Assembly: GCF_003334385.1 (NCBI RefSeq)
Contig: NZ_QOWN01000014.1
Length of the DNA stretch: 64,000 nucleotides
Strand: one strand, 5' to 3'
DNA from: Escherichia coli
GTDB lineage: Bacteria; Pseudomonadota; Gammaproteobacteria; Enterobacterales; Enterobacteriaceae
In this document: positions 51,558 through 58,383 of the stretch, in pieces
How the letters are laid out: every line of letters begins with the position of its first letter
Position numbering within the stretch: position 1 is the stretch's first letter
Made by a program: the position numbers and the translations under genes
Notes under the pieces: generated by a model
Databases searched by the model: none
What the model saw: only the letters and a program-made list of their open reading frames with translations
Told to the model about the DNA's origin: nothing

Positions 51558-53022
51558 ATGAATACCCAGTATAATTCCAGTTATATATTTTCGATTACCT
51601 TAGTCGCTACATTAGGTGGTTTATTATTTGGCTACGACACCGCCGTTATTTCCGGTACTGTTGAGTCACTCAATACCGTCTTTGTTGCTCCACAAAACTT
51701 AAGTGAATCCGCTGCCAACTCCCTGTTAGGGTTTTGCGTGGCCAGCGCTCTGATTGGTTGCATCATCGGCGGTGCCCTCGGTGGTTATTGCAGTAACCGC
51801 TTCGGTCGTCGTGATTCACTTAAGATTGCTGCTGTCCTGTTTTTTATTTCTGGTGTAGGTTCTGCCTGGCCAGAACTTGGTTTTACCTCTATAAACCCGG
51901 ACAACACAGTGCCTGTTTATCTGGCAGGTTATGTCCCGGAATTTGTTATTTATCGCATTATTGGCGGTATTGGCGTTGGTTTAGCCTCAATGCTCTCGCC
52001 AATGTATATTGCGGAACTGGCTCCAGCTCATATTCGCGGGAAACTGGTCTCTTTTAACCAGTTTGCGATTATTTTCGGGCAACTTTTAGTTTACTGCGTA
52101 AACTATTTTATTGCCCGTTCCGGTGATGCCAGCTGGCTGAATACTGACGGCTGGCGTTATATGTTTGCCTCGGAATGTATCCCTGCACTGCTGTTCTTAA
52201 TGCTGCTGTATACCGTGCCAGAAAGTCCTCGCTGGCTGATGTCGCGCGGCAAGCAAGAACAGGCGGAAGGTATCCTGCGCAAAATTATGGGCAACACGCT
52301 TGCAACTCAGGCAGTACAGGAAATTAAACACTCCCTGGATCATGGCCGCAAAACCGGTGGTCGTCTGCTGATGTTTGGCGTGGGCGTGATTGTAATCGGC
52401 GTAATGCTCTCCATCTTCCAGCAATTTGTCGGCATCAATGTGGTGCTGTACTACGCGCCGGAAGTGTTCAAAACGCTGGGGGCCAGCACGGATATCGCGC
52501 TGTTGCAGACCATTATTGTCGGAGTTATCAACCTCACCTTCACCGTTCTGGCAATTATGACGGTGGATAAATTTGGTCGTAAGCCACTGCAAATTATCGG
52601 CGCACTCGGAATGGCAATCGGTATGTTTAGCCTCGGTACCGCGTTTTACACTCAGGCACCGGGTATTGTGGCGCTACTGTCGATGCTGTTCTATGTTGCC
52701 GCCTTTGCCATGTCCTGGGGTCCGGTATGCTGGGTACTGCTGTCGGAAATCTTCCCGAATGCTATCGCTGGCAATCGCGGTGGCGGCCCAGTGGCTGGCG
52801 AACTACTTCGTCTCCTGGACCTTCCCGATGATGGACAAAAACTCCTGGCTGGTGGCCCATTTCCACAACGGTTTCTCCTACTGGATTTACGGTTGTATGG
52901 GCGTTCTGGCAGCACTGTTTATGTGGAAATTTGTCCCGGAAACCAAAGGTAAAACCCTTGAGGAGCTGGAAGCGCTCTGGGAACCGGAAACGAAGAAAAC
53001 ACAACAAACTGCTACGCTGTAA
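51558..53022 (+). pseudogene. xylE: xylE (D-xylose:H+ symporter, MFS) disrupted by a frameshift near 52765
   Basis: Frame from ATG 51558 matches XylE through ...SEIFPNAI, then diverges and stops at 52952; the recalled XylE C-terminus (LAIAVAAQWLANYFVSWTFPMMDKNS...TATL) continues in another frame to 53022; span is 11 nt short of a 491-aa gene. Confidence 0.8.
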
Positions 53023-53065
53023 TCTTCCTGTCCAGCACGCCGCGCCATTTCGGCGTGCTGACTTT

Positions 53066-53476
53066 TTACTCCCGCTTCAGCCGTTTCGAATTACACAGCC
53101 ACAGGGTGATCACCAGTAACAGGATCGCAGCCGAGTAGATCAACACATCCAGTGGCGATTTATGATCGACGATGATCAAGCGCACAATGGCGGTGATCCC
53201 AATATAGACAAAGTAACGTAGCGGGAAGTGAAAACCGGACTGAAAGTACTTCACAATCAGCGCGATAAATTCGAAATAGAGAAAGTAAACCACCAGTCCT
53301 TCTACCAGCTCATATTTGCTGGTTTGTTCTGGCGCGAACAGCACATCAGCCAGATGCACCGTTTCTTTGCCGAGGAAGACAACCAAAATCAGGCCGAGGC
53401 ACAGCAGGCCAAGATTGAGTACGGTCTGCAAAATGGTGGAGATAAACTCCACGCGCGGACGAGAGAGTGACGTCAT
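53066..53476 (-). CDS. psiE: PsiE, phosphate-starvation-inducible membrane protein (136 aa)
   Basis: 136 aa [38 protein letters not shown]... Confidence 0.93.
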
Positions 53477-53589
53477 AGCAGTACCTCCTTCACAGTGGCG
53501 AGCTTCCTGTATAACGCAAAAATGTGACGGAGATCTATATTTTTTGTATATGTTTTGTTCAACCTGGATTTGGAGCGCGCCTCCACCAA

Positions 53590-53650
53590 AGCCGGATATA
53601 CCTACCCGTAGGCCGGATAAGCCGCGCCTGGCGGCGCATCCGGCAAGACA
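53590..53650. repeat. REP element(s) upstream of psiE
   Basis: GCCGGATATACCTACCCGTAGGCCGGATAAGCCGCGCCTGGCGGCGCATCCGGCA. Confidence 0.75.
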
Positions 53651-53745
53651 AACCGCACCAAAGCCGGTAATTCAAAAATCACCCATTCAGGTGATTCCCA
53701 GCCACCAGCAATGCGCGAAAAATCGACAATGTTCCTCTGGAACAA

Positions 53746-54024
53746 ATGAAACGTAACCTGATAAAGGTGGTAAAAATGAAGCCTTATTTTGCTGCTTTGA
53801 TGTTATCAGTCTCTGTTCTTCCTGCTTATGCTGGTCCGCTCGGTACTGCTGATAAAGCCGACCTACCGCAAAGCAATGTCTCCAGCCCAATGATGGCCCA
53901 GTCGCTCAGGCAACCAGACCTGCAACCGATATCGACGGACAGGAAGACAGAATGTTTTCGCCTTTACACACCAGATCGCAAACCGGGGGTGAACTGCGTT
54001 CCTGATGGCTCAACAGGCCATTAA
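53746..54024 (+). CDS. yjbT: Small secreted protein of unknown function (up to 92 aa), likely YjbT
   Basis: ORF with signal-peptide-like segment MKPYFAALMLSVSVLPAYA; position between yjbH and psiE; start uncertain (could be internal Met at residue 11). Confidence 0.5.
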   Translation: MKRNLIKVVKMKPYFAALMLSVSVLPAYAGPLGTADKADLPQSNVSSPMMAQSLRQPDLQPISTDRKTECFRLYTPDRKPGVNCVPDGSTGH

Positions 54025-54070
54025 GAATGAGGGTGCCAGTGATTGCGAAAACTGGCACCTTTCCCATGAC

Positions 54071-56167
54071 TTAGCGGAAATTGACGCTACGGTCGCTGGT
54101 CATGTCATACAACTGGAACTTACGCCCAAGTTGTTGACCACCGTCACGCGTCAGCGGCGTCCAGCCAATCGCCGCACGGCTGCGTGTCGGGCCAGACGAG
54201 AAGAGATCCAACGGTACCGAGACATACACGCCTTTGGTGAAGTCCCCTTCGCCGTACTCCTCTTTCGAAACATTAGTGATCGTGGCATAGCCACCCACCA
54301 CCACGCCGCTATCAAAGCGTTTGGCGATCTCCAGCGTGCCGCCTTTATCCCCTGCCAGATACTGCCCGACGCTGGCTTTAACTAACACATCCTGAGCGAA
54401 AGATGGCGTCCAGTAGGCGGTCAGATGTCCGGTTTTCACGCTGTAGTCGGTGAATTTCATCATATCTTTTGCACTACGCCAGTCGCGCTGTTTAACGTAG
54501 TTGGCATCCAGACCAAACGCCCAGTTGCTGTCCAGCGGGCGATACAACACTTCTGCCCCCGCACCGCCAAACATGGTTTCGAGATAACCACCGTAGACCT
54601 GACCGTAGAAGCCGTTGCCCAGATGCTGGAAGTAGTTGGCTTGCAGGTTATTCACATAGACATCGTTCTGCACATACTCGCGCACATGGGTACGCACGCG
54701 CGGTAAGTGCGAGTCCTGCGGAGGATTAGTGTAGTTAAACTTGTCGTAGTTGTTGGCAAGATTTGCAAACAGGCTGCCGGTGGTCAGCAGATGGTCCGTC
54801 AGCCACAAATCTGCCGTTCCCATCACGCCCAGCTGATACATGTAAAAGTTTTCCGGGCCACCGACCGACTGGTTCAGCACCGGATCGATATGGAAATCAA
54901 AGCGTGATTTGTCGATATACCAGCCCTGCTCGGTGGACTGCGGAACCACTGGCTCGACGCGTTTTTGCGCCAGCGTCGTTTCGTGGCCCAACGGCTCTCC
55001 GGCGAGATGATTTTTCAGGCTGGCGACATCGGTTTCCGTCGTCGCCTGCGGCATGTTAAGGCGATTTTCCGTAATGCGGATCGTTTTGATCCCATCCGGC
55101 AGATCGTTCATCACGATCCGATTCGCACGGATGATCCCTTCGCGCGAATCACGATATTTCACCTGCTCGCCGGTAACATACAGCGTATCGCCTTTCGCCT
55201 GGATCTGTGGATCGGCAAGTCCGGCATTGTATTTCAACAGCGTTAACTGATTCGCCACCACCGAATGCTGCAAAATGGCATCCTGCGGCTGCGGTTGATA
55301 TTGCGGGCGGGCGTTATCGTTGTAAGACGGGCGCAGATCGTTAAAGTTGGTGCGCAACGTAACGCCAAACATAAAGGTGTTGCCACGTTCATAGCTAAGG
55401 TTAACGTCGGCCCAATCGGTAACGCGATAAATCGCACCGACGTTAAACTTACTTTTTTGCTCCAGCTTCCCGGCAAAATCCTGCTGATAATTATTGCCTT
55501 CATACTCCAGTTTCAGGCGCAGCGGTTGCCAGGGCGTCTGGTATTCCACGCCGCCAAACAGTGAGGCAGGACCGTGGAACATCTGGCTACCGTCGATAGA
55601 TCCCGCCTGTTTGTAGCTGTTATCGCGATAGCAATATTTATCACTGGCTGAACAGAGCGGATTTTTCACATTACCGCTGGTGCCCAAATATCCCCAGCCC
55701 AGGCCGAGCGTAAAATCGAACGGCCCCCAGGCTTTGCTGGCAACAAGATATTCCGCATCAAACAGCCCCGTACCGCCGATATCCCGCGCACCAACCGCCA
55801 CTTGCGGCAGCCAGTAACTCTCTTCCCACAAACGCAGTTTGAGATCGAAGGCTTTATCTTTATACGTTTGATCGCCAGAGAACGCTTCGACGCTGCTGTA
55901 CTGCCGGGTGCGCACGTCGGTGTAGCGCAGCGTTGTTTCCAGCCACGGGAAGAGTTGCACTGAAGCTGAGTAATAACGGTACTGATCGTTATCGCGATAG
56001 TTCAGGCTCAACTCCCCTTCCCGCGCCATGCGTGCGGTGGGCGTTTGTAATAATCCTACGCCACCGAAATCCGACTGCGACGGGCCAATGGGCGCAGGAT
56101 ATGTTTCGCCGTAGCAAGCCATGCTAATGCCCAGCGCCAGTAAGCTAAGCAGATGTCTTTTTTTCAT
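54071..56167 (-). CDS. yjbH: YjbH, outer-membrane lipoprotein-like component of the yjbEFGH exopolysaccharide locus (698 aa)
   Basis: 698 aa with signal peptide [20 protein letters not shown]; last gene of four co-oriented overlapping genes. Confidence 0.9.
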
Positions 56168-56904
56168 TATTGAGGTATCCGCTGCGTCAGAGTCTGAAGA
56201 ATGTCGGCGTTAAGGGCATCAGGCGTCTCACTCCAGACGGAGTCCGCGAGGCCAACATAAATAATGCTGCCGGGCATCGGCTCTACGTGACGCTTGTTCC
56301 AGTAAGCCACCGGCGCTTTTTGCGTGCGTCCGTCCGGGTAAACCACCCACGCGTAGCTGCGATCCGCACCGCTGAGCAGGCTCTGGTCAGAGAGATAGCT
56401 CGCCACGTCGCGACCTGGAGTGAATGGCTGCTTGCCAGGACGGCTGATAAGCCCGAACAACGTGACCGTGGACGGCGGTGGTCCGACCCACAGCGTGTAG
56501 TTGCCCTGCAACGGCGGGTTACCGCGTTCGGCAACGCGGACGATATCGGGATCAAGATTGATTTTTTGCCTGCCCGTCACTTTCAACGCCTGAATTTGCT
56601 GGCGTAAGGCGTTAATCGCAGCGGCATCGTCGGCGCTGGAATCTGCGCCCTGTTCTGCCAGCCGTGTCAGCAACGCCTGCTGCTGACGCAATGCTGCCGC
56701 CGTTGCCAGCTCTTCGCTAATCACCGCACCGGGCCACCAGCTGTTTGCCAGCCGCGGTTGGCCTACCAGATCGATTAAATGCTCTGCGCCCGTTAGCGTT
56801 TTGGCCTCACTGCTGCCATTGCTGAACACCTTGACGGTTCCTGCCGCGAAGACCGATGACGCTCCCACACTCAAAAGCAACGCGACAATAGTTTGTTTAA
56901 TCAT
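56167..56904 (-). CDS. yjbG: YjbG, periplasmic protein of yjbEFGH locus (245 aa)
   Basis: ATG at 56902-56904 gives 245 aa [20 protein letters not shown]... (signal peptide); 4-bp overlap with yjbF. Confidence 0.88.
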
Positions 56905-57539
56905 TGTTTTGCCGCCTTGATGAGAGTGGTTTTCACCGGAAAATAATCCGCGCCGAGATACTGTTCCGACTGGCGAATTTGCCCTTCGCTGTCGATCCAA
57001 TAGCGGTTATGCCAGCGCGCCTGGTCGGTGGAGACTTCTTCGTCCAGCACGCGAACCGGGGTTTCATCGCTGCCGACTTTGACGGTATCGGTGCCATCCC
57101 ATTTGAAGACTGAGCGTGCGGTGGCGTAGCGTACCTGCTGGTACTCGGTCCAGCCCATCGTGCGCGTCCAGCTTGCGCCATCAACGATTTGTGCGGGTTT
57201 AATCAGCGGGTCGGCAGCAAGGTTATTCACTTCAATCAGGTTGTCGCCGCCGAGCAGAGTCTTCACCAGACGGCCATGTTGGGTAACGAGAGTAGCCTGA
57301 TCCTGAGTGACCCATTTTTGTTGTCCGTCTTCAGCGAAGGCCAGCACCACAAATAACTGCGGCCCGCCATTAAGCTGCATGTACTGGCTGGCGTAGGGCA
57401 TATTTTGAATATCATCATCCGTCAGCTGTACGCCTGGCGGGCCGAACAGACTGTCCCACAGTGAATTGCCCAGCTCTTTAGTCGTGGCTGAACAGGCCTG
57501 TAATAGCAGGCAGATAAGAATGAGTGCAGGTCGCTTCAC
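56901..57539 (-). CDS. yjbF: YjbF, lipoprotein of yjbEFGH locus (212 aa if GTG start at 57537-57539)
   Basis: Lipobox LLQAC in signal peptide; no ATG in N-terminal region, GTG at 57539 gives 212 aa (ORF track starts a further 10 codons upstream at another GTG). Confidence 0.8.
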   Translation of the reverse strand: MKRPALILICLLLQACSATTKELGNSLWDSLFGPPGVQLTDDDIQNMPYASQYMQLNGGPQLFVVLAFAEDGQQKWVTQDQATLVTQHGRLVKTLLGGDNLIEVNNLAADPLIKPAQIVDGASWTRTMGWTEYQQVRYATARSVFKWDGTDTVKVGSDETPVRVLDEEVSTDQARWHNRYWIDSEGQIRQSEQYLGADYFPVKTTLIKAAKQ

Positions 57540-57652
57540 GACTCTTCTCCAGAGGGGCAGAATAACCACACCGGAGTGTGGTTATGGTAAATCCCTTCAT
57601 ACTTCAAGCCACAGATGCAATGACTCAAATTATTTTGGGGATACATACTTTA

Positions 57653-57895
57653 TTACTGGGTACTGGTGGTCGTGGTTGTGGTGGTCCCGGTATTAGAACC
57701 ATCACCGCCACCGGTTGCCGCGAGCGCGACACCCACCGCCGAGCTTACGGTGCTGACGCTGGTCGCGGAGGAACTCCCCGCCGAAACCGACGTTGCTGCC
57801 GACCCTGCCGCTTCGCCCACCTGTACAGGTGCAGCCCACGCAGAAGTCGCCGCAAGCGCAGATATGGCAAAAATGCCATACAGAACTTTTTTCAT
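57653..57895 (-). CDS. yjbE: YjbE, small secreted low-complexity Ser/Thr/Gly/Ala-rich protein (80 aa)
   Basis: 80 aa [21 protein letters not shown] followed by low-complexity tail ending [10 protein letters not shown]. Confidence 0.88.
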
Positions 57896-58299
57896 AACAA
57901 TTTCCCTTCATTGAATGAATGGAGATTTACCCAAAAACATTTCGGGCGGGATCGAGTATACACAACTAAAGCATGCGAATTACGGCGCGGGGAATTAGCG
58001 ATGGCGTTTTAGGATAATTGGAATGAATATCAAATATAAGTTTCAACCTATATTTAAATAACAATAAAAATCATAAACTTAAAATAAAAACAAAAGCAAT
58101 TAATCTGCGTATTTTCCGAAATAAACAACGATTAAAAATCTATTTTAGGATTAACCTCACGGTATGATTTCCGTTAAATTACAGACAAGGGGATTTATCT
58201 GATAAAAAAATGCCGACATAACGTCGGCATTGTTATTAAGGTTATTTAATCAATCGTGCTATGTATTAATTGCCGAATACGATGTACATATCGGCATCG

Positions 58300-58383
58300 A
58301 CCTGTAGGCCTGATAAGACGCGACCGCGTCGCATCAGGCATCGGTTGCCGGATGCGGCGTGAACGCCTTATCCGGCCTACATA
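58300..58383. repeat. REP cluster downstream of pgi
   Basis: TGTAGGCCTGATAAGACGCGACCGCGTCGCATCAGGC and GCCGGATGCGGCGTGAACGCCTTATCCGGCCTACA units. Confidence 0.9.

Follow-up and report, generated by a model that had tools for sequence, protein, structure and literature searches.

An apparently genuine 11-bp frameshift deletion in the xylose symporter gene xylE of an Escherichia coli lineage

Overview

The stretch of E. coli DNA analysed here (the window; 64,000 bases) carries what is, with a probability of roughly 90%, a genuine, recent and lineage-private loss-of-function allele of xylE, which encodes a D-xylose/H+ symporter belonging to the sugar-porter family of the MFS. The reading frame is shifted after Ile403 by the loss of 11 bp, proposed to be spontaneous, from the cytoplasmic loop between TM10 and TM11. 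The allele is previously undescribed, and the event itself is of a very common kind, namely a frameshift that is private to one strain and affects a transporter gene the species can do without. The evidence comprises alignments to intact alleles, profile and structural matches of the encoded product, searches for the deletion junction in public genomes, and recovery of the same junction in a separate assembly.

Reading frames of xylE and the 11-nt deletion

The first xylE frame (51558-52952, plus strand) begins at ATG 51558 and ends at a TAA stop at 52950-52952, as established by direct reading of positions 51400-53200 and from the list of open reading frames. It encodes a product of 464 aa, recognized both in that list and by a match to the profile NF007484, that comprises XylE residues 1-403, covering TM1-TM10, and then a tail of 61 aa read out of frame (AGNRGGGPVAGELLR...PGNQR). 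The intact reference was the 491-aa product of strain 1409, annotated 'D-xylose transporter XylE' (WP_001097274.1). In pairwise nucleotide alignments to strain 1409 and to strain KE58, the sole gap in the gene is the absence of TCGTGGTAAAG, 11 nt that are missing between positions 52765 and 52766 of the plus strand. The codons for R404, G405 and K406 are lost together with the first two bases of the A407 codon, while I403 is retained with ATC replacing ATT; the first amino-acid mismatch with XylE of strain 1409 is accordingly at residue 404 (R to A). When TCGTGGTAAAG is put back, the 1465-nt span of the window (51558-53022) becomes a gene of 1476 nt with 0 nucleotide differences from xylE of strain 1409 (100% identity).

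The 3' part of the gene is stranded in the +1 frame (52766-53022, plus strand; L408-L491), where both the reading of open frames and a match to NF007484 positions 401-480 identify it. This downstream frame carries ...LAIAVAAQWLANYFVSWTFPMMDKNSWLVAHFHNG...KKTQQTATL before a TAA stop at 53020-53022, and encodes TM11 (with Q415 and W416), TM12, the PETKG motif and the C-terminal tail. The frameshift is a deterministic result of the reading frame in which chance plays no part. These observations bear out every detail of the sequence-only reading of the frames. It had proposed a match to XylE from ATG 51558 through ...NAI with a stop at 52952, and identity indeed extends through Ile403; its placement of the XylE C-terminus in another frame ending at 53022 agrees with the open reading frames; its shortfall of 11 nt (1465 versus 1476 nt) is reproduced by the alignment and the re-insertion of the missing bases; and the RGKA segment that it reported as missing corresponds to the loss of R404-K406 and two bases of A407. 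It had further suggested aligning the site, which it located within 52740-52800, to a reference xylE; the alignment places the gap at 52765/52766, inside this interval, and the reference has the 11 nt.

The junction shows no microhomology (T versus C at the left boundary, T versus G at the right), and the placement of the deletion is therefore unambiguous. Slipped-strand deletion between direct repeats was considered as a mechanism and is unsupported, given this lack of microhomology. The region upstream of the gene, which includes its promoter (51400-51557, plus strand), is the same as in intact alleles: a query of positions 51400-53100 matched many genomes at 99.4% identity over 100% of its length (1690/1701), a value fully explained by the 11-nt gap, and the upstream region is thus unaltered. 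With its upstream sequence unaltered, the disrupted gene presumably continues to be transcribed.

Identity of the locus and of its product

Residues 1-406 of the 464-aa product match NF007484, the NCBIfam equivalog profile for XylE, at positions 1-400 of 480, with positions 401-480 covered by the downstream frame, so that the two frames tile one gene. The product scores 754.7 bits against a curated cut-off of 608, with coverage of only positions 1-400 of the 480 in the model. Its match to TIGR00879 ends at product residue 403 (model position 444 of 510), whereas intact XylE reaches position 510. The complete 12-TM sugar-porter MFS fold described by TIGR00879 is absent from the 464-aa product, which lacks TM11 and TM12; of the substrate and motif residues, R404 of the E397-x6-R404 motif has been lost with the deletion, and the frameshift removes Q415 and W416 from the reading frame. 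In the annotations of the collinear KE58 genome and of strain 1409, xylE sits between malG and psiE (order malG, xylE, psiE). As judged from these comparisons, the locus is xylE by descent and the protein that it is predicted to encode is truncated. The appropriate annotation is a frameshifted xylE pseudogene rather than a pair of hypothetical MFS fragments.

Predicted effect on transport

Intact XylE matches PDB chains 4GBY, 4GBZ and 4GC0 over residues 1-491. Relative to this structure, the deletion cuts into the conserved SEIFPNAIRGK motif (E397-x6-R404) of the cytoplasmic loop that joins TM10 to TM11, and the last 88 residues of XylE are replaced by 61 unrelated, non-hydrophobic residues. 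The 61-aa tail contains no hydrophobic segment, its maximum Kyte-Doolittle average over 19 residues being 0.67; as the threshold of 1.6 missed TM11/TM12 even in intact XylE (maximum 1.42), helix assignments are those of the published structure. In the 2012 study of Sun et al., the R404A substitution is said to have abolished XylE transport. On TM11, Q415 and W416 form part of the D-xylose binding site of XylE (PMC3853582). Another paper cites Sun et al. 2012 for Q415A and W416A being sufficient to abrogate xylose transport by XylE, and mentions R404A just among the residues modelled there (PMC7427733).

Structure and mutagenesis literature together indicate that the frameshifted xylE is almost certainly a null allele with a product incapable of xylose transport, since this product lacks R404, TM11 with Q415/W416, TM12 and the C-terminal PETKG motif. 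The truncated membrane protein would be made and then probably misfolded or degraded.

Two routes by which XylE might still function are +1 ribosomal frameshifting and assembly in the membrane of two fragments, one of TM1-10 and the other an 87-aa peptide of TM11-12. The latter would be the product of a hypothetical open reading frame (MLSLAIAVAAQW...TATL; 52759-53022, plus strand) that opens at ATG 52759, which happens to lie in the frame of the C-terminus, and spans NF007484 positions 401-480; split MFS transporters, for example the halves of LacY, can complement each other. However, inspection by eye revealed neither a slippery sequence nor a shift site like that of prfB, and upstream of ATG 52759 there is just a weak GGA at a distance of ~11-15 nt and no good ribosome-binding site. 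Any product of either route would still lack R404-G405-K406, the first of which lies in the conserved cytoplasmic E-x6-R motif, and the large fragment would bear the 61-aa junk tail. The exact 87-aa peptide is absent from a collection of 15 billion proteins, where no gene caller predicted it. Rescue of this kind is the most improbable of the alternatives weighed here. Only slightly less remote are the broader propositions that the allele is not null, with a split XylE retaining some transport or transporting in an altered way, or that loss of xylE is adaptive in the clone rather than neutral.

Rarity and age of the allele

Complete RefSeq E. coli genomes were searched with an 81-nt query spanning the deletion site. 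The deletion junction occurs in 0 of the 3,637 genomes that match across the site, all of which align at 81/92 (88%), i.e. have the 11 nt present. An exact search with a 41-nt junction likewise returned 0 matches in GTDB species-representative genomes and 0 in JGI metagenome contigs. The gene is also free of secondary decay, with 0 other nucleotide changes relative to the intact allele. As far as these sequence collections indicate, the deletion allele is rare, recent and private to a narrow clone, its rarity and recency following from its absence from the 3,637 genomes and from the lack of secondary decay. The junction …CCGAATGCTAT / CGCTGGCAATCG… is a handy clone-specific marker, given that it is found in no complete RefSeq E. 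coli genome having that part of xylE.

Authenticity of the deletion

The sequence-only reading had left undecided whether xylE is a genuine pseudogene or an artefact. An artefact of sequencing or assembly would mean that the real genome still has the 11 nt and that assembly or polishing removed them, and a junction found in no complete RefSeq E. coli genome also has the look of a one-off error. However, an exact copy of the 464-aa product occurs in the 15-billion-protein collection, its source there being Logan (assemblies of public read sets), and a different assembler working on public reads has thus yielded the identical junction. The Logan contig that carries the product, ERR1948963_266 (9,722 bp), is recorded for 7 samples and is 100% identical to positions 48652-58373 of the window, with no mismatch or gap and with the junction covered. 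The Logan assembly is separate from that of the window; if the same runs underlie both, it is the assembler alone that is independent, and not the library.

The remainder of the window argues in the same direction. Across all 64,000 bases, the differences from KE58 amount to 10 SNPs, an in-frame indel of 3 bp and the 11-bp deletion in xylE, and no further frame-breaking indel is present; a generally poor assembly is ruled out by this full 64-kb comparison. Typical errors of sequencing platforms involve 1-2 nt in homopolymers, whereas here 11 nt were lost from non-repetitive sequence. An artefact is therefore judged very improbable, and the junction in a separate Logan contig, together with the clean 64-kb window, strongly favours the pseudogene branch of the original alternative. 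The xylE locus shows the hallmarks of a recent, non-decayed pseudogene, with a frame disrupted relative to intact orthologs and a junction recovered in the Logan contig.

A real deletion might instead be a xylE knock-out that was engineered on purpose or evolved in the laboratory. The complete lack of microhomology at the junction is compatible with a designed edit, and a literature search on ERR1948963 and on the prefix ERR1948 turned up no origin of the run. Against this, the window contains neither a cassette nor an FRT or lox scar nor any foreign sequence, and the background resembles that of a natural isolate, lying 10 SNPs from a urinary isolate and including espX5 and a SopA-family effector gene. 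Designed deletions are usually whole-gene or in-frame, and engineering of xylE is normally carried out in K-12, B, W or C strains. Deliberate or laboratory origin is thus improbable, if marginally less so than an artefact, and a spontaneous deletion in a natural lineage remains the favoured reading.

Genomic context of the window

The window (1-64000) is collinear with positions 4332953-4396960 of E. coli KE58 (NZ_CP141075.1), a urinary isolate from Dallas. No xyl gene other than xylE occurs in the syntenic KE58 annotation, which extends from nrfG to pepE, and xylFGH does not lie within the window. Two genes resembling those of type III effectors are placed in the window by synteny with the KE58 annotation, at 10710-12002 (plus strand) and 41529-43109 (minus strand); one is espX5, which codes for a pentapeptide-repeat effector, and the other, of the SopA family, is inserted between ubiC and malM. 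In ubiC, the window has a specific in-frame tandem duplication of 3 bp (41259-41264, minus strand), already counted above as the 3-bp indel relative to KE58, that supplies an extra TAT codon and one additional Tyr, and that is found in neither KE58 nor strain 1409.

Differences from strain 1409 are concentrated in one region. Positions ~30000-36000, which contain the DUF2713 / yjbL-yjbM region, zur and dinF, account for 138 of 146 SNPs and 7 small indels relative to that strain, and are identical to KE58. From its distribution of differences, this segment looks like a recombination patch separating otherwise near-identical backgrounds. The DUF2713 gene is annotated as frameshifted in strain 1409.

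Loss of xylE across E. coli and its expected consequences

Megablast searches with an intact xylE coding sequence as the query gave matches in 3,638 of 5,426 complete RefSeq E. coli genomes, and none in 1,788 of the 5,426 (33%). Individual strains record further forms of disruption, including an IS5 insertion in xylE of strain 730V1, an IS1 insertion in strain ES11 and a remnant of only 248 nt in strain TOE17. Loss of xylE is recurrent and the gene is dispensable across the species.

Xylose uptake in E. coli is shared between the low-affinity XylE (Km 63-169 uM) and the high-affinity ABC system XylFGH (Km 0.2-4 uM; PMC10989795), the latter being the dominant xylose system (PMC2808357). In enteroaggregative strain EAEC 042, which lacks xylE, xylose metabolism is reduced but effective, which has been attributed to XylFGH (PMC2808357). 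Deprived of XylE, the strain from which the window derives would rely for xylose on XylFGH and on promiscuous carriers such as AraE or GalP. Given the dominance of XylFGH, a mild phenotype would be expected, as in natural xylE-negative strains, and the mutation probably has little or no effect on fitness, in view of the dispensability of xylE across the species. For metabolic models of the strain, proton-coupled uptake of xylose via XylE should be removed. In other respects the allele is one further case of the repeated loss of this gene in E. coli and matters little beyond annotation.

Comparison with known xylose transporters and xylE-negative strains

The closest characterized system is E. 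coli XylE itself, the D-xylose:H+ symporter represented by structures 4GBY, 4GBZ and 4GC0, with which the gene of the window shares its locus and residues 1-403. It differs from this protein in being frameshifted after I403, such that in-frame translation ends ahead of R404-K406, TM11, TM12 and the C-terminal tail. With regard to outcome, the nearest parallels are the natural xylE-negative E. coli EAEC 042 and the IS-disrupted alleles of strains 730V1 and ES11, in all of which the low-affinity symporter is likewise lost. However, the allele of the window differs from these three in the route taken, having arisen by an 11-bp frameshift deletion rather than by absence of the gene or insertion of an IS element.
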